Source: a virus
Taxonomy: Duplodnaviria; Caudoviricetes
Reading direction: 5' to 3' (one strand)
Virus record (IMG/VR): IMGVR_UViG_3300005613_000093
Location: 1-50,254 of that record
DNA length: 50,254 bases
In this document: piece after piece, positions 3,735 to 20,515 of the stretch
Layout of the letters: each line of letters opens with the position of its first letter
Numbering within the stretch: position 1 is the first letter of the stretch
Position numbers and translations under genes: made by a program
Notes under the pieces: generated by a model
Told to the model about the DNA's origin: nothing
Databases searched by the model: none
The model's input: only the letters and a program-made list of their open reading frames with translations

Positions 3735-3991
3735 GCAAACAAACAGCAGTAGAATGGTTGGCAGAAAAGTACAACTATGTTACTTGGATGCGTAATCGTG
3801 ATGAAATATCAGCGGGAACGGCTGATGAATGGAGAAAGCGTTATTTAGACCAAGCCAAAGAAATGGAAAAGGAGCAGATGGAAGATGTGTGGCACGATAG
3901 CAGAGTTGAAGATTTTGGCGACGACTATATTGGAAAGCAAACATCATTTAATGATTACTACAACGAAACCTATAAAACCAAAGAGAAATGA
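3731..3991 (+). CDS. Small 'KQTAVEWL' family protein
   Basis: Similar to 4435..4650 and 4647..4868; ATGA overlaps at both ends. Confidence 0.8.
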   Translation: MSKQTAVEWLAEKYNYVTWMRNRDEISAGTADEWRKRYLDQAKEMEKEQMEDVWHDSRVEDFGDDYIGKQTSFNDYYNETYKTKEK

Positions 3992-4287
3992 AACAAGAAG
4001 AACTTTACAAGCTAGCTTCTGATTTATGGATTCAAACTTTTGAACAAGACAAAATTGACCAAGAATCAGATTTTAAATTTAGTACAGATGACAGAATGTT
4101 TTGGATTAATGGTTTTATGAAAGCCGCTAATTTGTTTGGCGATATAGATAATTTACCTAGTCCTCAACAGTTAGAAGAAAAAGGGCAATTGATGGGCGAA
4201 ATGTTTAATAAATTATTTTATAGCCAAAAAAACTTAAACCCAGAATATGGTCAAATCATTTCAGATAATTTTGACGATTTAACATGA
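3988..4287 (+). CDS. Hypothetical protein, 99 aa
   Basis: ATGA overlaps at both ends. Confidence 0.7.
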   Translation: MKQEELYKLASDLWIQTFEQDKIDQESDFKFSTDDRMFWINGFMKAANLFGDIDNLPSPQQLEEKGQLMGEMFNKLFYSQKNLNPEYGQIISDNFDDLT

Positions 4288-4448
4288 ACAACCAACAGCA
4301 GCCTAAAATAATTTTTACCACCAAAGAAGGAAATGGATTAAACGATATGAATAATGCATTTCAGAACTTTGAAAAGATATGCAATCATTATGGCTTTACA
4401 GTCCAAGATATTAAAATTGTTAAAAAGCAAGAAGATGAAACAAAGTAG
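4284..4448 (+). CDS. Small hypothetical protein, 54 aa (MNNQQQPKIIFTTKEG...), absent from the ORF track
   Basis: ATGA overlap with the upstream stop; fills the gap before ATG 4435. Confidence 0.6.
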   Translation: MNNQQQPKIIFTTKEGNGLNDMNNAFQNFEKICNHYGFTVQDIKIVKKQEDETK

Positions 4449-4650
4449 TATTGATTTCCTAGAAGATTGCTATGAAGCCGGTGGGGCAGACCAGTTTATA
4501 TGCTATACAGAATGGCCCCTAGCAAGACAATTACATAAACAAGAGATCATGGAAGCATTTTATGAAGGAATGAGATGTCAAAATTTTGACCCTAATATGG
4601 GTAGAGCAGAGCAATACTACAACGAAACCTTTAAAACCAAAAACCAATGA
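4435..4650 (+). CDS. Small 'KQTAVEWL'-related protein; start revised from 4354 to 4435 (MKQSSIDFL)
   Basis: N-terminus aligns with paralogs; shared AEQYYNETFKTK tail. Confidence 0.7.
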   Translation: MKQSSIDFLEDCYEAGGADQFICYTEWPLARQLHKQEIMEAFYEGMRCQNFDPNMGRAEQYYNETFKTKNQ

Positions 4651-4868
4651 AACAAATTAGTGCCGTAGAATGGTTAATAGAGCAATTTGAAACAATAGTA
4701 TTTTACAGTGAAGAAGCTAAAGAAAATACTATTAAACAAGCCCAACAAATGTTTGAGGAGCAGATAATTGATGCTCATATTCATGGTCATAATGCTTCAT
4801 CAAGTGTTATTAAAAAATATGATGCAGAACAATACTATAAGGAAACCTTTAAAACCAAAGAGAAATGA
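4647..4868 (+). CDS. Small 'KQTAVEWL' family protein
   Basis: MKQISAVEWL...AEQYYKETFKTKEK. Confidence 0.8.
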   Translation: MKQISAVEWLIEQFETIVFYSEEAKENTIKQAQQMFEEQIIDAHIHGHNASSSVIKKYDAEQYYKETFKTKEK

Positions 4869-5215
4869 ATAAAATTAAACAAAATAAAATCCCAATGATA
4901 TTAGAAGACAATGTATTAAAGGTTGCCGTGGAACAAGGTGTAATTGAAAAAGAGTATAATTGGAAGCTAGTTCGTGAAAAAGATAACCTAACTAAACAAT
5001 CTAAGGAAGTAATATGGATTGAATGGGATGAAAACAGTAGGTTTAAAGCAAAACATGATAAACCTGCTATTGGTCGCTCTTTAATTATGTCCCCATTTAA
5101 TGACTTTTTTACTTGGCAAACAACTGATATCAAAGAGATTCTAGAACAAAGGGAAGATTATATTAAGTTCAAGACACTAAATAGTACTTATGAATTATTT
5201 AAGACAAATGATTAA
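4865..5215 (+). CDS. Hypothetical protein, paralog of 2484..2786
   Basis: Direct sequence similarity. Confidence 0.8.
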   Translation: MNKIKQNKIPMILEDNVLKVAVEQGVIEKEYNWKLVREKDNLTKQSKEVIWIEWDENSRFKAKHDKPAIGRSLIMSPFNDFFTWQTTDIKEILEQREDYIKFKTLNSTYELFKTND

Positions 5216-6779: not shown

Positions 6780-6856
6780 TTATAACACTTTTAGTCAATA
6801 TATACCTTTACAAAATGACTAAAAAGTAAACTAATAACTTTACATTTTTAAAACCC

Positions 6857-6886
6857 AAAAGCCCTACTTCGGTGGGGCTTTTTATT
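6857..6886 (+). terminator. Rho-independent terminator with C(UUCG)G loop
   Basis: AAAAGCCCTAC-TTCG-GTGGGGCTTTTT. Confidence 0.85.
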
Positions 6887-6892
6887 AAAATT

Positions 6893-7261
6893 ATGAACAA
6901 CAATATCAGTCCTTGGGTAGTTGTAGGATTGAATATGTCTAAAGAAAGTAGAATTAAATCCTTTGTAACTACCATTTGTAAACATTATAAGATATCTGAA
7001 AGTGATTTAAAGCTAAAAAGTAGAAAGCAATCAATAGTTAATGCTAAAAAAGCTTTATCTTTTTACTTACATCATAATTTTAGATTGACAGAACAGCAAA
7101 TAGCTGATGAATTTAAACTAGGTATTTCTAGAAGCTGTATTCATCATCATAAAGTAGATTTTAGAAGATTACTTGAGGTAAAAGACCCAGATGTAGTATC
7201 TTTACAGTCTAAACTAGACAACCATTTAAAAAAATACGATGATATACTTAGTTTCAAATAA
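6893..7261 (+). CDS. DnaA C-terminal (domain IV)-like HTH DNA-binding protein
   Basis: ICKHYKISESDLKLKSRKQSIVNAKKALSFYL...QIADEF...SRSCIHH resembles the DnaA domain IV pattern; start revised to ATG 6893. Confidence 0.65.
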   Translation: MNNNISPWVVVGLNMSKESRIKSFVTTICKHYKISESDLKLKSRKQSIVNAKKALSFYLHHNFRLTEQQIADEFKLGISRSCIHHHKVDFRRLLEVKDPDVVSLQSKLDNHLKKYDDILSFK

Positions 7262-9104
7262 CAGCTTGATAAAGAGCGAAATATCTACACCATGTTCAAT
7301 AGATGACGTAAAAGAATGGTGTAAACACAACAAAATAAGAGGCATAGATACAGAAACTATTGGCAACTGTTGGGATGGGTATATTTTTACTCTTCAAATA
7401 GGTAATGCTGATACACAATTTGTTATTGACTGTACATATGCTAATATCCTAGACCTTAAAGAAGAACTAGAAGACCCTGAAGCTATTAACATTCTTCAGA
7501 ATAGTAAATATGACGATAAGTTCTTCTTTGCTAAAGGAATAAAACTAGGATACATTTGGGATACTTTTTTAGCAGAATGCATCTTAACTACTGGATATGA
7601 AAATAGACAGCTTAGGCTTGACTATGTAGTATCTAAATACTGTGGAGATAAGTACCAGTTAGATAAATCAGTAAGAGGTAAAATTAACTGGGCAGGATTA
7701 ACAGATGATGTTATTAAGTATGCTGCTTATGATGTTATTGCTTTGGAAGAAGTAATGAATAAACAAAAAGCAGAACTTGAGAGATTAGATTTAATGCCTG
7801 TAGCTGATTTAGAGTTTTCTTGTTCTAGAATATTTGCTGAAATGGAATATGTAGGCATGAAACTAGATGTTAATAAATGGCTAGAGCAAGCTAATGATAG
7901 AGAAAAAAATGCAGATAGATTTGAGAAAGCTCTAAATGAATACATTCTAGATAATCCAGACAAGTATAATAACTTTATAGATAGACAGTTAAACTTATTT
8001 GAACCAGGATTTAAGACAAATATTACATGGTCTTCTCCTAAACAAGTGCTTGATGTACTACTATCTTCTGGTATTAAAGTAGATTCTGTTAATGAAAAGA
8101 TTATTGAAAAGTACAAGGCTAAACATTCAATAGTATCTCTTTACCTAGACTATAAAGAAAATCAAACTGCAATAAGCAAATTTGGTAAAGAGTATCTTAA
8201 GTGGATAGTTCCTGAAACTAAAGCTATACATACCTCTTATTGGCAAATTCTTGCTACTGGTAGAGTGTCTTCAGGTATGAAAGATGAAGCACCTAATATG
8301 CAACAACTTCCTGCTTTAAATGAGGTAAGAAATTGTTTTATAGCTAGAGATGGTTATAGTTATGTAGACTGTGACTACTCTGCTATGGAACTTGTAATTG
8401 CTGGTTGTGTAAGTGGTGAAGAGTCTTGGGTAGAAGCATTTAATAATGGATTAGATTTACATTCTGTAGTAGCTGAAGCAGTGTATAAAGACAAATGGGT
8501 AAACTCTGCTGAAGAAAACTGTGAGTACATGAAATCTAAACAAAAATGCGATTGTAAAGAGCATAAAGGAATGAGAACTAAAATCAAAACTTTAAACTAT
8601 TTAGCTCTTTATGGTGGTGGTCCACAAAAGTTAAGTGACTCTATTAATATTCCATTAGCAGAAGCTAAAGAAATTATTAGCACTTATTTTAAAGGATTGC
8701 CTAAGCTTACTGGATTTTTAAATATGCTAAAAACATATGGTAAAAGGAACTTAATGATTAGAACTAAACCTCCATATCGTAGAATTAGATTTTTTGAAAA
8801 TCCACAAGATGACCCTGCTGTATATTCTCAAATTGAAAGACAAAGTGGTAACACCTACATTCAGGGCACTGGTGCTAATATAACTAAGCTATCTATGGTT
8901 AAAATGCATGAAGAAAGACTTAAGCATAACATTGATGTTAAGTTTGTTTTACAATTGCATGATGCTATAGTATGTGAAGTTAAAGATGAACAAGCTGATG
9001 AGTGGTTTAATATCCAAAAACAATGTATGATAGATGCTTTTAAAGAAGTTATAGGCTATCCTATTGATGTTGATGGGTATATAGCTAAACATTGGAAAAA
9101 ATAA
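7239..9104 (+). CDS. polA: Family A DNA polymerase with 3'-5' exonuclease
   Basis: ExoI DTET, ExoIII YAAYD, TGRVSS, PNMQQLP, motif A DYSAMEL, motif B RTKIKTLNYLALYG, motif C LHDAI. Confidence 0.95.
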   Translation: MIYLVSNNSLIKSEISTPCSIDDVKEWCKHNKIRGIDTETIGNCWDGYIFTLQIGNADTQFVIDCTYANILDLKEELEDPEAINILQNSKYDDKFFFAKGIKLGYIWDTFLAECILTTGYENRQLRLDYVVSKYCGDKYQLDKSVRGKINWAGLTDDVIKYAAYDVIALEEVMNKQKAELERLDLMPVADLEFSCSRIFAEMEYVGMKLDVNKWLEQANDREKNADRFEKALNEYILDNPDKYNNFIDRQLNLFEPGFKTNITWSSPKQVLDVLLSSGIKVDSVNEKIIEKYKAKHSIVSLYLDYKENQTAISKFGKEYLKWIVPETKAIHTSYWQILATGRVSSGMKDEAPNMQQLPALNEVRNCFIARDGYSYVDCDYSAMELVIAGCVSGEESWVEAFNNGLDLHSVVAEAVYKDKWVNSAEENCEYMKSKQKCDCKEHKGMRTKIKTLNYLALYGGGPQKLSDSINIPLAEAKEIISTYFKGLPKLTGFLNMLKTYGKRNLMIRTKPPYRRIRFFENPQDDPAVYSQIERQSGNTYIQGTGANITKLSMVKMHEERLKHNIDVKFVLQLHDAIVCEVKDEQADEWFNIQKQCMIDAFKEVIGYPIDVDGYIAKHWKK

Positions 9105-13933: not shown

Positions 13934-14272
13934 ATGAAACAAATTCCTATTAGTACTAGAGACTTGAAAATCTGGTATGTGCTGGACTGTATGTCAGCAG
14001 ATGAAATCGCAGTAAAAATTAACAATACCTATGGTATTAACTGCAGTGGTGATGATGTAGTAACTTTACTCAGAGAGAGAAAAGTTCAAACAAGAAATAT
14101 CAAGAGAACTGCAGCTACTTTTCAGTTTGTAGACCCTGATATGGTTGTAGAAGAAGCTTGTGCTGCTTATAGTGCTGAGCCTTCTGAGCCTGAAACAGCT
14201 GATATTAGCACATTACAACATGCAGGTATTCCTCAATATGAAATATCTGATATTTCTTCAGCAAGTATCTAA
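13934..14272 (+). CDS. Hypothetical protein, possible N-terminal HTH
   Basis: ORF; MSADEIAVKIN segment. Confidence 0.6.
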   Translation: MKQIPISTRDLKIWYVLDCMSADEIAVKINNTYGINCSGDDVVTLLRERKVQTRNIKRTAATFQFVDPDMVVEEACAAYSAEPSEPETADISTLQHAGIPQYEISDISSASI

Positions 14273-14300
14273 GTATTAACCCTTTTAATTTAAAACAAAT

Positions 14301-14876
14301 ATGATTAATCTAAATGACAACTCCTTTGATGGAGGTAGTAGTGTTCAAATTTTCAATGATGGTGTAGCAGGTCTAGTAAGAAATGTAAGACTAGACAGAA
14401 TTGAAGCTAAAGCTGCTGGTGACCAAGCATCTGCTCCTGATTATAAGCTTTTCTTTAAAGATTCTAATGGAGCAGAAATCAACATGGCTTTCTGGTATCT
14501 TGACCAAAACAGAGATACTTTTGCTAAAGACCTAGAAAAACAAGGTAAGGCTCTTAAACACCTTATCCATTGCTATCTAGGGGAAGAGTATCAATTCCCT
14601 GCTTTTAATTCTCCTAAAGAACTTCTTGATGGCTGTATGAAAATTATTCAGCCTAAGATTGCTGCTATGGTAAGAGTATATTGCACTTATGGTACTACTT
14701 TGTATCCTAAGAAATATATTCAAGTTAGAAGCTATGTTCCTTTCATTGAATCAGAACTAGTTCCTGTAAGTGATACTCGCCTAAAAGCTAATAAGATTGA
14801 CCAGATGGCTAGACTAGAAGAGGATACTCCTATTATGTCTGCTGGTGATTTTACAGCTTCAAGTGACGTTATCTAA
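14301..14876 (+). CDS. Putative single-stranded DNA-binding protein
   Basis: Lies between the ATPase and primase, beta-rich core, acidic tail, followed by a terminator; function inferred. Confidence 0.55.
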   Translation: MINLNDNSFDGGSSVQIFNDGVAGLVRNVRLDRIEAKAAGDQASAPDYKLFFKDSNGAEINMAFWYLDQNRDTFAKDLEKQGKALKHLIHCYLGEEYQFPAFNSPKELLDGCMKIIQPKIAAMVRVYCTYGTTLYPKKYIQVRSYVPFIESELVPVSDTRLKANKIDQMARLEEDTPIMSAGDFTASSDVI

Positions 14877-14929: not shown

Positions 14930-15943
14930 ATGATTAATCTCAACAATTTAGATTACAATTTACTCTCCTCTGAACTTATATTAGAAAAAGTATCAGAGTA
15001 TCAAATCTTTGCATTTTATATACCTAAATTGCAGTTAAATACTGCTACATCTAGTCCTCTAAGGGATGATGATGTACCATCATTTAGTGTATTTTATGCT
15101 AGCTCTCTGGATAAATTACTATTCAGAGATTTTGCTACTAAAGAAAAGGGTGATTGTTTTGTATTTGTTTCTAGATTATTTGGTTTAGATTACTATGGAG
15201 CTTTACAAAAAGTAGCTAATGATTTTGGTCTTATAGAGAATGATATTGTGGGCAGAAAAAAGAAAAAAATTAAAATACCAAAAAACATTAACTACAAAGA
15301 AAAAAGTAGGACACATATAGGAATTAAAATCCAGGAATTTACACTTAGAGATTTACACTTTTGGAATTCATTTGGGGTAAGCAAAGCTACACTAAACAAG
15401 TATAATGTGTTTAGCTGTAAATATGTATTCTTAAATAATTCTATTATAGCTGTAGATAATATTGTAAATCCAGCATATGCCTACTTAGAAAGCAAAGATG
15501 GTATCTATACATATAAAATTTATCAACCTTTTAACAAAAATCAAAGATTTATATCCAACGTAGATAAATCTGTATGGCAGGGATGGACACAACTGCCTAA
15601 AGAAGGTGAAAAGCTCATAATCACTAAATCTTTGAAAGATGTTATGGCAATTACAGAACAGGTAAAGATACCTGCTGTATCTCTTCAAGCTGAAACAACT
15701 GACCCTAAGCCTCATATTGTTAAACAGCTGAAGAAAAGGTTTGATAAAGTGTATCTTCTATATGATAATGACTTTAATAAGGAAGTAAACTGGGGTAGAA
15801 AATACGGAAGTGAGATAGCTTCTAAATTTAAGCTTCATCAAATAGAAATACCTAGTGAATACAAGTCAAAAGACTTTTCTGACCTAGTAAAAAACCATGG
15901 AAGAAACTCTTCCATTTCATTAATTAATTCCCTAATTTTTTAA
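14930..15943 (+). CDS. dnaG: DNA primase (DnaG-like TOPRIM)
   Basis: Degenerate zinc-ribbon SPLRDDDVPSF...KGDCFVFV, TOPRIM IITKSLKDVM and LYDND, C-terminal KDFSD. Confidence 0.85.
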   Translation: MINLNNLDYNLLSSELILEKVSEYQIFAFYIPKLQLNTATSSPLRDDDVPSFSVFYASSLDKLLFRDFATKEKGDCFVFVSRLFGLDYYGALQKVANDFGLIENDIVGRKKKKIKIPKNINYKEKSRTHIGIKIQEFTLRDLHFWNSFGVSKATLNKYNVFSCKYVFLNNSIIAVDNIVNPAYAYLESKDGIYTYKIYQPFNKNQRFISNVDKSVWQGWTQLPKEGEKLIITKSLKDVMAITEQVKIPAVSLQAETTDPKPHIVKQLKKRFDKVYLLYDNDFNKEVNWGRKYGSEIASKFKLHQIEIPSEYKSKDFSDLVKNHGRNSSISLINSLIF

Positions 15944-15960
15944 ACAACTAAATTTAATTT

Positions 15961-16356
15961 ATGCGTACTATTCGTGTTATCTCAACTCAATCTGACCGTG
16001 CTCAATCTGTAGAATCTGCTGCTTCTACTTGGGGTGAACTTCAATCTGCTTTATCTGGAATTATCAACAATGTTAATGACATGAAAGCTATTGTTCGTGA
16101 AACTCGTGTATCTTTGGAATCTTCAGAAGCTCAACTGCCTGAAGGTAACTTTACTGTTATCTTAAGCATGAAGAAAATTGCTTCTGGTAACGAAACTCGT
16201 TACAGTGATTCTCAGCTAAAAGAATTGAGAACTAAATTGAACAATTTGTTCAATGACCTTCTTGATGAAGATGAGGATGAAACTCCTGCTAACGGTATTT
16301 CTGCTGAAGAAGACAGAGATATTGCTAGATTGCGTGAGCAAGGTTTAATTTCCTAA
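15961..16356 (+). CDS. Putative ubiquitin-like (beta-grasp) protein with C-terminal extension after Gly76
   Basis: Beta-beta-alpha-beta-beta pattern (RTIRVIS / QSVES / TWGELQSAL / KAIV / LPEGNFTVILS) ending KKIASG76; first gene of an E2-JAB-E1 run. Confidence 0.7.
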   Translation: MRTIRVISTQSDRAQSVESAASTWGELQSALSGIINNVNDMKAIVRETRVSLESSEAQLPEGNFTVILSMKKIASGNETRYSDSQLKELRTKLNNLFNDLLDEDEDETPANGISAEEDRDIARLREQGLIS

Positions 16357-16380
16357 GTAGCTATGCTATGATTTAAGAAT

Positions 16381-16415
16381 AGGGTAGGGATTAATTTCCC
16401 TACCCTTTCTTATTT
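16381..16415 (+). terminator. Rho-independent terminator/attenuator between the Ubl and E2 genes
   Basis: AGGGTAGGGA-TTAATT-TCCCTACCCT, perfect 10-bp stem followed by TTCTTATTT. Confidence 0.8.
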
Positions 16416-16431
16416 ACCTAAATATAACCAT

Positions 16432-17823
16432 ATGACAGAATTAGAAAAATTATTATTAACAATACCTGAATCTGGGTATACTTTAGAACAAGCAGTTTCT
16501 GAAGCAATTCCAGGTAATTTAGTTCCTTTTGATGATACCTTTTCTTTAACTATTGACGACCCAATTGTTAAAGAAAGTAAAAGTGTGATTTTAGTAGTAT
16601 GTGCACATAACCCCTGGTTTGACCATTCTATGAGTTTAGTAGTAGACCCTGAAACTAGAAAAATAATACATGTAGTATCTAAATATGATCCAGACTGTCA
16701 ATATTTTAGGAATTCAAATGACTACTATCTATTATTTACTCCTTTAAGTGAAGAAGAAATTAATAATGAACATTTAATAGAAAATCTAAATTCAAAATTA
16801 GGAGAATTTCAAAATACAAGACATCTTAATGTTTATAAGGACTTTGCTTTAAACTTACTTAAACCTATTTTAGATGAAGTACATGGAGAGAATTATGACT
16901 TACAAATTAAAGATGGGAGTCTTCATGTACTTATAAGATATCCTTTAATCACAATAACAAATAGAGACGAAAGCTCTAGAGATATTGAAGAGCTGTATTG
17001 TGTATTGATATTTAATAGTGAGCTTAAATTAACAGACTTTCAAGGCTTCAGAGCCAAGTTTAATTTCCTAGATGTTAAAACTAAATATGCACACTCTCAT
17101 CTAAATAGTAGAGATTTAAGTAATTTGTTCAGAGTAACAAAATTTTGCACAGGTAGTACAGTTTTAACTATCCTAATAAATGACTTTAATGAAAGTTTTA
17201 ATAGCGATAGATTTGATTTATTGCTTTATCAAATAGATAACTTTGTTAGGTATGAATCCATAGAAGGTACTCCATATAGGTATTTATCAAATACTAATAA
17301 TGATAACTTAAGAGTACTAGATTCACCTTCTGTTTCACCACAAGATGTTAAAAACGAAGCTCTTAGATTTTTTGAAGATTTAGCAGTTAATTCTTCTATA
17401 TATCAGCCTATGTTTTCTACCTCTTTAAATTCAGATGGAAACTTATCTATTAAGCTTTCTGCTACTCACTCTTTAGCTAGAGCATTATCCCCCTATTCAA
17501 GAGTGCATTCTGTATATGATGAAAATTATAATGTCTTTCGTAATATAGGAGAGCAATATGATGATAGTTATAATTTACAAGAATTTAATCGCTCTCTTGA
17601 AAACACCACTTATAAAACCTTTAGAAATACCCCAATAAATTATGAAGCAGAAATTAAAAACCCAGAAAACGGAGCTACAGAAACAGAATTCTGCTCCCAA
17701 GAATTATACACATATGTCCTCAGAGAATTCCAAAACAAACTTAAACAGCAATATGAATTATTACAGGCCAAAGATTTATCTCTCCCAGAACATATTAAGC
17801 AAAATTTGGTATCTCTGTCATAA
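16432..17823 (+). CDS. Putative prokaryotic E2 (UBC-fold) conjugating enzyme, multidomain
   Basis: Central LIRYPLITI...YAHSHL (H221/H223)...FCTG (C239) followed by helices; Ubl/JAB/E1 context. Confidence 0.6.
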   Translation: MTELEKLLLTIPESGYTLEQAVSEAIPGNLVPFDDTFSLTIDDPIVKESKSVILVVCAHNPWFDHSMSLVVDPETRKIIHVVSKYDPDCQYFRNSNDYYLLFTPLSEEEINNEHLIENLNSKLGEFQNTRHLNVYKDFALNLLKPILDEVHGENYDLQIKDGSLHVLIRYPLITITNRDESSRDIEELYCVLIFNSELKLTDFQGFRAKFNFLDVKTKYAHSHLNSRDLSNLFRVTKFCTGSTVLTILINDFNESFNSDRFDLLLYQIDNFVRYESIEGTPYRYLSNTNNDNLRVLDSPSVSPQDVKNEALRFFEDLAVNSSIYQPMFSTSLNSDGNLSIKLSATHSLARALSPYSRVHSVYDENYNVFRNIGEQYDDSYNLQEFNRSLENTTYKTFRNTPINYEAEIKNPENGATETEFCSQELYTYVLREFQNKLKQQYELLQAKDLSLPEHIKQNLVSLS

Positions 17824-18922
17824 GATTAATACTGTAGAATGGTCTGGTATTGTTTTCTGTAAAACAGAAGGTCATCCAATTGAACCTGAAACTTTTAGCA
17901 TTAGAGCTATAGATATTTTGCCTATGCATAAAGGTGAACCTACATATACTGAATTTGAAATTGATGAAAGAGTAATTGATGCTTATGATAATAATCCAGA
18001 ACTAGAGGATTGTAAAATGGGTATTATTCACTCTCATGTCAATATGGGAGTATTCTTTAGTAGTACAGATTCTTCTACTTTAGATGCTTATGCTAAGCTT
18101 TCTAACTTTTGTATTTCTCTTATTGTAAACAATAAAGGTGAGATGGTAGCTAAAGTTGCCTATCCTTTGAATTCTAAAAGCAAAAGATACAGTAAGCAGT
18201 ATAAAAACTCTGAAGGTCAATGGGTATCTATTGACAATAAAGAAGAAGAATATGATAATTTACATGTAGTAGCACTAGACCTTGAGATAGTTAAAGAGAT
18301 GGAAGAGTTCTTTGTGACTATGACTGATAAAGCTATTCAGTCTAGCACTATTAGGCCTTCTACTACTTATGGTGTATATGGAAATTACAACTATGGTGAT
18401 GATTATGATTATGATACTAAAACATATAATCAATCATTTAACACATCCAATTCATCTTATGGTAAAGTATCTAGTCCTAAACTATTTGATGATAAGCCTT
18501 ACTATAAGGAGGTAGTTAATAACACTACAAACAATAAAAATGTTTATACTGCATCTGAAGTAAATAGCTTTTTATGTAAGTTGCTTTTCTTGGATGAATC
18601 TTATAAATCAATTGATTTAGATAGATGTGTTTCTAAAATGGCTGATGACCATTTCAAAAGCATAGATAAAGATATGTATGCTCATCATATGGAAGAAAAG
18701 ATTGAAGACTGTTACAAAGAAGTTTTTAACATTAAATCTACTTATCTTGACCTAAATCCTTTGGGAGATTTCTTACAAGATGCCATGGAAACATGTTTAG
18801 ATAGTATGACTAATACAGCAGATGTAAGTAACGATATCTATGAGCTTATCTATGGAGTACTTTGTGACTACTATGCAGAAGAAATAGATTTCAATAATAG
18901 TTTTCCTAAATCAAATAACTAA
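17753..18922 (+). CDS. JAB/MPN+ (JAMM) metalloprotease with long C-terminal region
   Basis: Glu in VEWSG plus exact HxH-x7-S-x2-D motif (HSHVNMGVFFSSTD); start may be 17714 or 17753 rather than 17642. Confidence 0.88.
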   Translation: MNYYRPKIYLSQNILSKIWYLCHKINTVEWSGIVFCKTEGHPIEPETFSIRAIDILPMHKGEPTYTEFEIDERVIDAYDNNPELEDCKMGIIHSHVNMGVFFSSTDSSTLDAYAKLSNFCISLIVNNKGEMVAKVAYPLNSKSKRYSKQYKNSEGQWVSIDNKEEEYDNLHVVALDLEIVKEMEEFFVTMTDKAIQSSTIRPSTTYGVYGNYNYGDDYDYDTKTYNQSFNTSNSSYGKVSSPKLFDDKPYYKEVVNNTTNNKNVYTASEVNSFLCKLLFLDESYKSIDLDRCVSKMADDHFKSIDKDMYAHHMEEKIEDCYKEVFNIKSTYLDLNPLGDFLQDAMETCLDSMTNTADVSNDIYELIYGVLCDYYAEEIDFNNSFPKSNN

Positions 18923-19608
18923 TGACAGAGAGATTTAAAGACGCTGTATGGTTGCCTAAAGCCCAGTCCCACTACATTACTGTAGGTGGGGCTGGGGGCA
19001 TAGGCTCAGTAGTAACCTTTCTTCTATCTAGGATAGAACCACAGCAAATTGCAATTTATGATGATGATACTGTTGATACTATAAATTTATCTAATCAGTT
19101 GTTTTGTAGTAGGCATGTAGGATTGCCCAAAGTATCTGCAGTATCTTCTGTTTGTTATGATTTTAGTGGTTATGCAAAAATACTTTTGCTACAAGAAAAA
19201 CTAACTTCTGCATCAACAACTAGTGAGGTTATGTTTAGCTGTTTTGATAACATGGAAGCTAGACAAACTATGTTTGACCTATTTGTAAGGGATATGGATA
19301 TGTATGCAAATCAAGGTGTAGAGCCTATTTTTATTGATGGTAGATTAACAGCAGAACAGTTTTATATTTATGTTGTTACCAGAGATAAAGTAGATAGGTA
19401 CAAAGAAACTCTCTTTCCTGATTCAGAAGCAGCAATGCTTCCTTGTGGCTTTAAAGGTACTACACATAATAGTTTTATGATTGCTAGTAAAATGGTTGCA
19501 GCATATACTAATTTTTGTGCTAATCTTGTCACTGAAGAACCTATGAGAGAGGTGCCTTTTTGCATTGAAAATGATATCTTTACTATGACAGAAATAATAA
19601 CACTTTAA
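18922..19608 (+). CDS. ThiF/MoeB/E1-like adenylating enzyme
   Basis: GAGGIGS, YDDDTVDTINLSNQ, GLPKV, CFDNMEAR, IDGR; candidate catalytic Cys175 (LPCG); no Zn CxxC pairs. Confidence 0.92.
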   Translation: MTERFKDAVWLPKAQSHYITVGGAGGIGSVVTFLLSRIEPQQIAIYDDDTVDTINLSNQLFCSRHVGLPKVSAVSSVCYDFSGYAKILLLQEKLTSASTTSEVMFSCFDNMEARQTMFDLFVRDMDMYANQGVEPIFIDGRLTAEQFYIYVVTRDKVDRYKETLFPDSEAAMLPCGFKGTTHNSFMIASKMVAAYTNFCANLVTEEPMREVPFCIENDIFTMTEIITL

Positions 19609-19612
19609 AGAT

Positions 19613-20515
19613 ATGATAAACTTTGGAAACCAAATAAGAAGAATTAATATTAGATTAAAACCAACATCTGTTAAGATTAAATATGATGGTGAATATTGTA
19701 TTTATTCTTCTTCACAAGCTAGTAGAGTAGTAGATAATTGTTTTTTTATGCACAATCTAGCTAGGTCTACTCCATATTTTAGAAAAAGCCTTATAACTGA
19801 AGTAGGAGCTATAAAATACCGTAATTTACTAAGTTTTAATGACATATCTAGGAATATAGAAACCAGAGAAGCTCTAAATTCTAATCAAATCTCAGAAATT
19901 GAAAAGAACTTTCTAGGGGATATAAATAGATTTTTAGAAGTTACAAATGATTTTCATATTATAGATTGTCACTATAGTACTCCATTATCTGAATTTTCAG
20001 CAGAATTGTTTAGTGATATTAGAGCAAGACGTATAAGGAATAGAGCTGGTAATTATTTATTTGGTGGTGGTTTGTTTGGAGTTTATGAGAATAATAGATT
20101 AACTATACTAGCAGCATTAGTTATTAAAACAGAAGCAGTACAACTACCTAGACTAGTAGCATTACATAATTTTGCAGATATTGAAAACCCACATTCTCTA
20201 GAAAATGTAGATGACTTGTTTAAGATATATGTTCAAGCAGGTTTTGACTATAAAGATACTGAGTATAAAAACTTAAGAAAAGTTTATAGGAAACATCTAT
20301 TACCTTTTGCAGCAGAGAATAATATCAAAATAGAAACAGTTCCTGACTTAAATCAATTACTAACAATTCAGGTAGGAGTTCCTGTATATAGTAATAGATT
20401 TGAAAAGGCAGAAAAAGAAGCTATAGTTATTAAAAATGCAATTAATGCTTATTTAGCTGAGAATAGAGAAGAGCTGTTTATTCTAGAAGATGCTGTAGAA
20501 CACACACTATGGTAA
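19613..20515 (+). CDS. Hypothetical protein, 300 aa, directly downstream of E1
   Basis: ORF starting 4 nt after the E1 stop. Confidence 0.7.
   Translation: MINFGNQIRRINIRLKPTSVKIKYDGEYCIYSSSQASRVVDNCFFMHNLARSTPYFRKSLITEVGAIKYRNLLSFNDISRNIETREALNSNQISEIEKNFLGDINRFLEVTNDFHIIDCHYSTPLSEFSAELFSDIRARRIRNRAGNYLFGGGLFGVYENNRLTILAALVIKTEAVQLPRLVALHNFADIENPHSLENVDDLFKIYVQAGFDYKDTEYKNLRKVYRKHLLPFAAENNIKIETVPDLNQLLTIQVGVPVYSNRFEKAEKEAIVIKNAINAYLAENREELFILEDAVEHTLW

Follow-up and report, generated by a model that had tools for sequence, protein, structure and literature searches.

A ubiquitin-like precursor in a predicted crAss-like phage conjugation cassette, and the candidate second protein in its tail

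The 50,254-nucleotide stretch of phage DNA analysed here (the window; Caudoviricetes, IMG/VR record IMGVR_UViG_3300005613_000093) carries a small gene whose product is predicted to fold like ubiquitin over its first 76 residues, to reach a glycine there, and then to run on for another 55. Activation by an E1 enzyme requires a free C-terminal carboxylate on the ubiquitin-like protein (Ubl), and a Ubl that never ends at its glycine must therefore be processed. The locus thus raises two questions, namely whether the JAB protease encoded downstream makes the cut, and whether what is cut off is a disposable cap or a protein in its own right. The parts of the gene are as follows.

15961..16356, + strand: pro-Ubl gene, 131 aa, comprising a beta-grasp domain and a fused 55-aa tail
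15961..16188, + strand: ubiquitin-fold (beta-grasp) domain, residues 1-76, the predicted mature tag (AF2 model, VIA-align, Foldseek)
16186-16188, + strand: codon of Gly76, the predicted cleavage and activation site, with the putative cut at Gly76/Asn77
16189..16353, + strand: tail, residues 77-131 (helix 83-102, acidic linker, helix 115-126), the predicted released cargo

Translation of 15961-16356 (+) bears out the initial annotation in giving 131 residues with glycine as residue 76, preceded by KKIAS and followed by 55 more. An AlphaFold2 model built from 24 close relatives (mean pLDDT 78) has the strand and helix order of a beta-grasp across residues 2-70, with low confidence at residues 74-76 and 106-112. 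The top VIA-align match of this model was FAT10 (Z 9.6, rmsd 2.0, 72 aligned); chains of ubiquitin, ISG15, DIX, UBX and MoaD scored equally well or only slightly lower. The best Foldseek match (E 1.3e-3), of the same fold class, fell just short of that tool's threshold. Sequence searches with the Ubl gave chance-level matches only in Pfam, no relevant match in the PDB, and in PHROGs a single family without known function (phrog_15560, E 5.6e-7). IglG (NCBIfam, E 0.006) was considered as an identity and rejected, the match lying far below the cut-off.

A profile search over 1.84 billion representatives returned 1032 relatives at E<=0.001, and we aligned the query with the best 150 of these 1032 cluster representatives (151 rows in all, with domain identities to the query of 25-70% and a median of 42%). 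Invariance of the glycine among homologs was the check named by the initial annotation; the column holds Gly in 150 of the 151 rows, as against 118, 96 and 12 for three control Gly columns. The one exception, P0191, has Asp in the column and Gly one residue later. At the profile-aligned site of 51 loci Gly is present in 49, and the motif is visible by eye in the other two. An ending in SG rather than GG, also remarked on earlier, proves to be the family norm, with the motif K-[VTI]-K-[SA]-G; the query's clade has Ala at position 74, where 141/151 relatives have Lys. The emphasis on a glycine at exactly 76 holds for the query but not for the family, in which 76 is only the modal position (52/151, range 71-106); the length match to ubiquitin reflects domain size, and the number itself carries no weight.

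Immediately after the glycine conservation ends: 17 different residues occupy the next position among the 151 (Asn in 17 of them), and the indels of the family cluster there. None of the 151 relatives ends on the glycine, the tails running from 1 to 241 aa with a median of 80. Nine have ten or fewer residues after it, and some of these nine shortest may be truncated by contig ends, while those in cassette loci have real stop codons.

The genes around the pro-Ubl gene, on the same strand, are these.

14930..15943, + strand: DnaG-type primase, the upstream neighbour, with weak Pfam CHC2/Toprim matches; also upstream of the Ubl gene in related loci
16381..16416, + strand: intrinsic-terminator-like hairpin with T run (10 pairs, 6 G-C), between the Ubl gene and the enzyme genes
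16432..17823, + strand: E2-like protein, 463 aa, with His221-Ser-His223 and Cys239 (codon 17146-17148) as predicted active site
17642..18922, + strand: JAB/JAMM metallopeptidase, longest ORF 426 aa, start at 17753 likelier; Glu66, His130, His132, Ser140, Asp143
18922..19608, + strand: minimal E1 (ThiF-family adenylation domain), 228 aa, with Cys175 (codon 19444-19446) at the predicted crossover-loop position
19613..20515, + strand: 300-aa ORF directly after E1, fast-evolving, of uncertain cassette membership

The order Ubl-E2-JAB(-E1) is kept in 35 of the 35 loci tabulated, as separate ORFs throughout. In the JAB protein each residue of the motif E...HxH-x7-S-x2-D (E66, H130, H132, S140, D143) is conserved in 35/35 loci, and an E[WY]SG motif is present in 50/50. 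The window's own JAB falls below the Pfam Prok-JAB cut-off, 24 of 27 members match at E<=0.01, and the best PDB matches of the JAB profile are Rpn11 and JAMM1 (E 0.009-0.03). Several relatives (L numbers are our handles for loci) have the JAB gene interrupted at or just after His-x-His: L040:4815-5039, L046 at about 4892-5140, L036 at about 3969-5060, L085 at about 6830-7970, and phage Fpv1 (L089:3776-4771). Rfam identifies the insert in L040 as a group I intron (RF00028, at 59.5 bits, which exceeds the gathering score); that of L046 resembles it by eye and has no Rfam score, and the Fpv1 insert contains an endonuclease ORF. Introns sited at the catalytic residues would be consistent with a gene whose function has to be kept.

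The E1 consists of one ThiF domain (Pfam ThiF, E 1.7e-14, above cut-off), its nucleotide-binding residues are invariant across the loci tabulated, and Cys175 is found in all 33 complete genes (33/35 loci, the other two being cut by contig ends). Against the ThiF/MoeB equivalog models it scores 42.8 bits where the cut-off is 275 (TIGR02356) and 27.7 where it is 266. In L022, L024 and L090 (the gut Steigviridae phages DAC15, PhiCrAssBcn1 and PhiCrAss001) the E1 is extended at its N-terminus by an acidic stretch of about 100-150 aa. The 300-aa ORF behind E1 has no family match, and an ORF of similar size occupies this place in the five annotated phages that we viewed.

In the 463-aa protein both Cys239 and the upstream His223 are conserved in 35/35 loci. 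The N-terminal half of its model bears a weak likeness to E2/UEV/RWD folds, best to UBE2J2 (Z 5.8, rmsd 4.0, 127 aligned), and titles of this kind account for over half of the 50 rows, in a tie with unrelated folds; Foldseek returned nothing at E<=0.001, and the Pfam and PDB sequence searches were negative. It is the fold hint, the motif and the context together that lead us to call the protein E2-like. A second JAB had been considered for its His-Ser-His motif and was rejected (profile comparison probability 1.5%). The E2-like ORFs of L039, L043, L044, L052, L053, L056 and L057 reach 579-719 aa, against 340-470 in most others, the extra length being a long N-terminal part.

With this setting, we consider it very probable that the phage JAB cuts between Gly76 and Asn77. 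There is precedent in two bacterial systems: the portion of the Bil study consulted has BilC cutting BilA between Gly97 and Ala98, and E. aridi BilA with an Ala-Gly, that is non-GG, end before its cut (10.1101/2023.09.26.559546), and the corresponding portion of the Bub study has BubCD cutting BubAB after Gly229, which frees the E2 BubB (PMC11601596).

The second question concerns the tail. The initial annotation had called the extension helical and acidic, and in the AlphaFold2 model residues 83-102 form an amphipathic helix and 115-126 a short C-terminal one, joined by an acidic, low-confidence linker (106-112); the net charge of the query tail is -8. The annotation had also expected the extension to be variable, which is true of its length (1-241 aa) and of its first residue (17 kinds) but does not describe it fully. 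Tails of about 40 aa or more are present in 135/151 relatives, 63 of them acidic and 9 basic. In two clades of close relatives dN/dS was 0.118 and 0.122 over tail residues 79-102, 0.24 and 0.15 over the Ubl domain, 0.30 and 0 over the last tail helix and about 2 over the linker, the values coming from few, non-independent pairs (21 and 6). On these rates the first tail helix is under purifying selection.

A profile built from 52 fused tails of 41-75 aa runs from an amphipathic helix through an acidic stretch to a short helix at the end. Of 83 longer tails it matches 18, for the most part at the C-terminus, compared with 0-2 in ten shuffles. The longer tails have extra modules in front, including a SAP/HeH-like helical domain and Lys/Ala-rich stretches; of the 50 relatives scanned, five have SAP matches, one above the cut-off and four below it. 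The tail is thus a module of conserved plan, helix, acidic linker and helix, to which inserts may be added. A T-R-Y-S-D-type tail start is common to the window's clade and L040/L048, the E1 proteins of which have 36-37% identity to the window's E1 and are placed elsewhere in the E1 tree.

In some relatives the place of the tail is taken by a separate gene. Among the 35 tabulated loci the four in which no hairpin immediately follows the Ubl stop are those with very short tails, and in three of these four a separate 39-46-aa ORF comes next, with the hairpin after that ORF. Further loci of this kind came from a scan seeded with short-tailed Ubls, and hence biased to them (26 loci; L064, L083 and L084 duplicate L063 and L082, and each was scored once). 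In total the split arrangement was seen on 10 contigs, each with a Ubl having 1-3 residues after the glycine, an ORF of 39-82 aa, and then the terminator; seven of the small ORFs are distinct, and several are coupled to the Ubl stop through a TAATG overlap. Since the Ubls of these split forms retain 1-3 residues after the glycine, processing would still be needed. L051, the fourth of the loci lacking that hairpin, had been taken for a short-tailed Ubl and was dropped from the set: seven consecutive A residues behind the Gly codon (L051:3915-3933) shift the frame between the Ubl and a tail-like sequence in another frame, through assembly error or slippage.

The L082 stand-alone ORF matches the fused-tail profile at 19.5 bits (E 6.7e-5), ranks first of 1509 small ORFs and is equalled by 0 of 500 shuffles. 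The other six match weakly (ranks 4, 10, 17, 37, 82 and 99 of 1509, with 1, 32, 16, 35, 278 and 73 of 500 shuffles, in the same order, reaching their scores), and among them only that of L065 is clear of its shuffles (1/500). As judged from these profile scores, homology of the tail gene is clear in one lineage (L082), and position suggests it in the remaining ones. The ESM Atlas held no usable match for the query tail or for the L082 ORF. L075 has a one-residue Ubl tail and no tail gene at the locus, so the tail module can be lost, and together with the tails of only 21-23 residues in L068 and L069 it indicates that the full tail is dispensable in some lineages. In a tree of the E1 proteins (49 of 50 loci) the split forms make three supported groups within one unresolved clade that they share with fused forms; the tree gives neither the direction, fusion or fission, nor the number of events. 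The earlier suggestion that the released peptide may have a role of its own gains support from the selection on the tail helix and from these apparent separate tail genes.

We therefore favour, with a probability of roughly 0.7, the reading that the gene fuses a Ubl tag to an acidic two-helix protein, that the phage JAB likely separates them, and that the tail is a second working protein. Were the cut to occur and the tail simply to be discarded, as a safety cap or as an aid to folding or stability in cis, one could understand why type II BilA, in the part of its description consulted, needs up to nine extra residues only (10.1101/2023.09.26.559546), why L075 makes do with a single residue and no tail gene, why tails differ so widely in length and charge, and why most stand-alone ORFs match the tail profile weakly. 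A cap acting in cis could not, however, function as a separate gene, and the L082-084 ORF fits the tail profile and lies between the Ubl stop and the terminator; with a dN/dS of about 0.12 in the tail helix and tails of about 40 residues or more in 135/151 relatives, we regard a discarded pro-peptide as unlikely. More improbable still is that beta-grasp and tail are never separated, the former being a built-in docking domain in a protein of two domains and the glycine a structural hinge. The tail is indeed conserved like a domain, and many of the nearest folds to the Ubl model (BAG1, UBX, DIX, Dsk2) are integral Ubl domains, but the glycine lies in a low-confidence linker and is nonetheless the best-kept residue of the family, relatives with tails of 1-3 residues retain the same motif, E1 needs the free carboxylate, and the adjoining JAB is intact. 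These points leave the uncleaved protein very little probability.

It is also improbable, in our judgement quite strongly so, that the processed Ubl is a sulfur carrier of the ThiS/MoaD/Urm1 type, acting as a thiocarboxylate in base or cofactor modification and not as a protein tag. In its favour, the E1 is an adenylase of the ThiF family that stands alone, and cultured phages carry it under that annotation; genes of nucleotide metabolism surround the cassette; and JAB release of fused ThiS/MoaD-like carriers has been proposed by Iyer et al. in the section of their study consulted (PMC1779556). Against this, the E1 falls far below the ThiF/MoeB cut-offs given above, the cassette always includes the Cys-bearing E2-like gene, and no sulfur-transfer gene was found among the window ORFs scanned, a subset from a contig that is a partial genome. 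Finally, the mature end might be other than Gly76 (Gly-Asn77, for example), or a host protease might cut and the JAB only deconjugate; the sections consulted on Bil do describe its JABs as deconjugases too (10.1101/2023.09.26.559546). Asn77 cannot be the reactive end of the family because 17 different residues are found at that site and Asn in only 17/151, and in Bil and Bub, as far as the portions consulted go, it is the operon's own JAB that carries out maturation (PMC11601596, 10.1101/2023.09.26.559546), so that this alternative has next to no weight.

If tag and tail both work as free proteins, their supply relative to that of the enzymes becomes of interest. The stem-loop proper of the terminator-like element lies at 16381-16406. 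Hairpins of at least -15 kcal/mol strength occur within 75 nt after the Ubl stop in 31/35 loci, after JAB in 9/35 and after E1 in 0/33; in L025 the post-Ubl hairpin is located inside the next gene. The codon bias of the Ubl gene, of the high-expression type, is the strongest among the 19 window ORFs examined (7/10 Arg codons are CGY, 0/10 Ile codons ATA). The Ubl gene is covered by RNA-library contigs in three of four runs; two of these contigs, from one study, end at 16371-16373, just 5' of the hairpin, and one from another study crosses it. We set the RNA contigs aside as evidence of termination, since contigs cannot show ends or levels. A promoter scan gave a chance-level count (64 vs 54 +/- 7.6). 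It is fairly probable, from hairpin and codon bias, that the arrangement yields abundant tag plus tail and scarce enzyme. A second terminator-like hairpin (window:14902-14920) follows a 191-aa ORF upstream of the primase (region 13934-14876), which has raised codon bias and no family match; our guess from its acidic C-terminus is an SSB-type protein.

In gene design the locus recalls the eukaryotic UBA52 and RPS27A-type fusions, in which a ubiquitin-fold unit likewise stands N-terminal to an unrelated small protein. In those fusions a deubiquitinase frees both parts in 1:1 amounts. The likeness is one of gene-design analogy only; the cargo here is without known family, and no sequence relation is claimed. 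Closer in gene content is type II Bil, with which the cassette shares four separate genes ordered Ubl, E2, JAB, E1, a pro-form Ubl cut (here putatively) after one conserved Gly with a non-GG end, and Cys-based E1 and E2 without E3 (here predicted). It differs in that Bil is a host-encoded anti-phage operon and this a phage cassette; in that the Bil E1 is IAD-AAD-CYS, according to the portion of PMC11601596 consulted, and the one here a 228-aa single adenylation domain; in that usually 41-241 conserved residues follow the glycine here (55 in the query), against up to nine in the BilA described in the parts consulted; and in having an E2-like protein of 463 aa with extra domains and a terminator between Ubl and enzymes.

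With type I Bub (6E.1), in the portion of its description consulted (PMC11601596), the cassette shares a long fusion cut by JAB after a conserved Gly, which frees a second functional protein, and a minimal E1 domain of the homodimer type. Bub, however, has Ubl-E2 and JAB-E1 fusions where all four genes are unfused here, its cargo is an E2 (BubB) and not a small acidic helical protein, and its E1 uses Tyr and its E2 Ser where conserved Cys residues are found in both proteins here; no DUF6527/BubE Pfam match was found among the 12 neighbouring proteins scanned, where a diverged copy may be present. The cassette thus falls outside Bil (by E1 architecture, tail length and phage location) and outside Bub (by fusions and Tyr/Ser chemistry). 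PRTRC/class 6d, as presented in the sections of PMC1779556 consulted, likewise has a small Ubl with conserved terminal Gly, a stand-alone E1, a Cys E2-like protein and a JAB, but its E2 is described as being without the usual upstream His, which is invariant here; the E1 scores 26.8 bits with the PRTRC model, for which the cut-off is 144.75, and no PRTRC model (TIGR03736 family) was among the 25 families listed, of 41, for 85 Ubl members at E<=0.05.

The same sections set out bacterial Ubl operon classes 6a-6e and, for phages, only the lambdoid tail-assembly Ubl-JAB pair (PMC1779556), and the consulted portion of PMC11601603 gives N-terminal additions to bacterial Ubls and not C-terminal cargo. 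Our literature search found no phage-encoded Ubl-E2-JAB-E1 cassette among its top-ranked results, which were partly swamped by eukaryotic ones, subscription papers and most supplements being outside its range; a term search of the main text of PMC7886860, PMC6235969, PMC8375218, PMC10172136 and PMC7824862 returned no description of such a cassette.

From the assembled genes we would picture the cascade as follows. A JAB cut after Gly76 would arm the tag and release the tail. E1 would then adenylate Gly76 and form a thioester at its Cys175, from which the tag would pass to Cys239 of the E2-like protein and, in the manner of Bil, on to protein lysines with no E3 involved; taken jointly, and argued by analogy, these steps are rather likely. 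Terminator and codon bias would keep tag and tail plentiful and enzyme scarce. The freed tail, produced in a 1:1 ratio to the tag, would act in trans as a small adaptor that binds proteins. That it has some independent role in trans is a proposition toward which the evidence leans; that it serves the cascade itself, for instance by bringing targets to the E2, is a more tentative idea. Just as speculatively, the targets might be DNA-bound proteins met in the middle, replication phase of infection, because the longer tails add a SAP/HeH-like domain and Lys/Ala-rich linker, and because the cassette lies in the middle-gene module of PhiCrAss001.

Where, then, is the cassette found? E1 homologs occur in 76 GenBank phage records, and those opened belong to Steigviridae, Fipvunavirus or are unclassified; a close-relative scan of a prokaryote genome collection gave one short contig. 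With the Ubl, E2-like and JAB proteins as queries, PADLOC gave no match at E<=0.001. By the homology of its cassette and neighbouring genes to Steigviridae and Fipvunavirus, and by its very large opposite-strand ORFs, the window itself appears to be crAss-like. These ORFs (window:24115-50221, - strand) comprise two of 1418 and 5131 aa and three of 533-914 aa, sizes that one would expect of the virion cargo or RNA polymerase proteins of crAss-like phages; a single PHROG family, without known function, was matched. Two small ORFs at window:2484-2786 and 4865-5215 are paralogous and match the same PHROG (38150, no assigned function).

The window's Ubl gene sits in a phage replication module (DNA polymerase, helicases, a Sak4-like protein, primase, RusA, exonuclease), and in the part of PMC8375218 consulted, which does not name the cassette, a module of this type makes up the middle genes of PhiCrAss001 transcription. 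PhiCrAss001 (NC_049977) has the orthologous cassette gp79-gp78-gp77-gp76 in the same order after its primase; gp79 has the domain end K-x-K-S-G, with Gly89 equivalent to Gly76, and a 135-aa tail. In the gene table consulted (PMC6235969 Supplementary Data 2) gp76 is ThiF, gp77 has a metalloprotease domain, and gp78 and gp79 are blank. A label in a PhiCrAss001 supplementary figure, considered as a proteomics result for gp79, was rejected as such; it marks a CRISPR-spacer hotspot. In cultured phages the E1 is annotated as 'thiamine biosynthesis protein ThiF'.

Among prokaryotes, Ubl conjugation has been demonstrated in the host defence systems CBASS Cap2, Bil and Bub. Here viruses would possess the same conjugation kit, conserved as a cassette in a lineage with cultured, abundant gut phages, where it is currently mislabelled as thiamine biosynthesis. 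The precursor logic has precedent in Bil and Bub, and the gain here is the evidence that the tail is selected and can stand alone. The pro-form defines a construct, residues 1-76 (to Gly89 in gp79), and the remnant to be sought by mass spectrometry, and through the relatives with split genes the tail, formerly an assumed cap, becomes a candidate independent protein. CrAss-like phages may even, though we offer this as conjecture, run a thioester ubiquitination cascade of their own, with the freed cargo, which some lineages would encode separately and others extend by DNA-binding modules, as the adaptor that aims it at its targets; the gene would then be a virus-encoded counterpart of the eukaryotic ubiquitin-fusion genes, a highly expressed ORF supplying a tag and a small protein in equal amounts.
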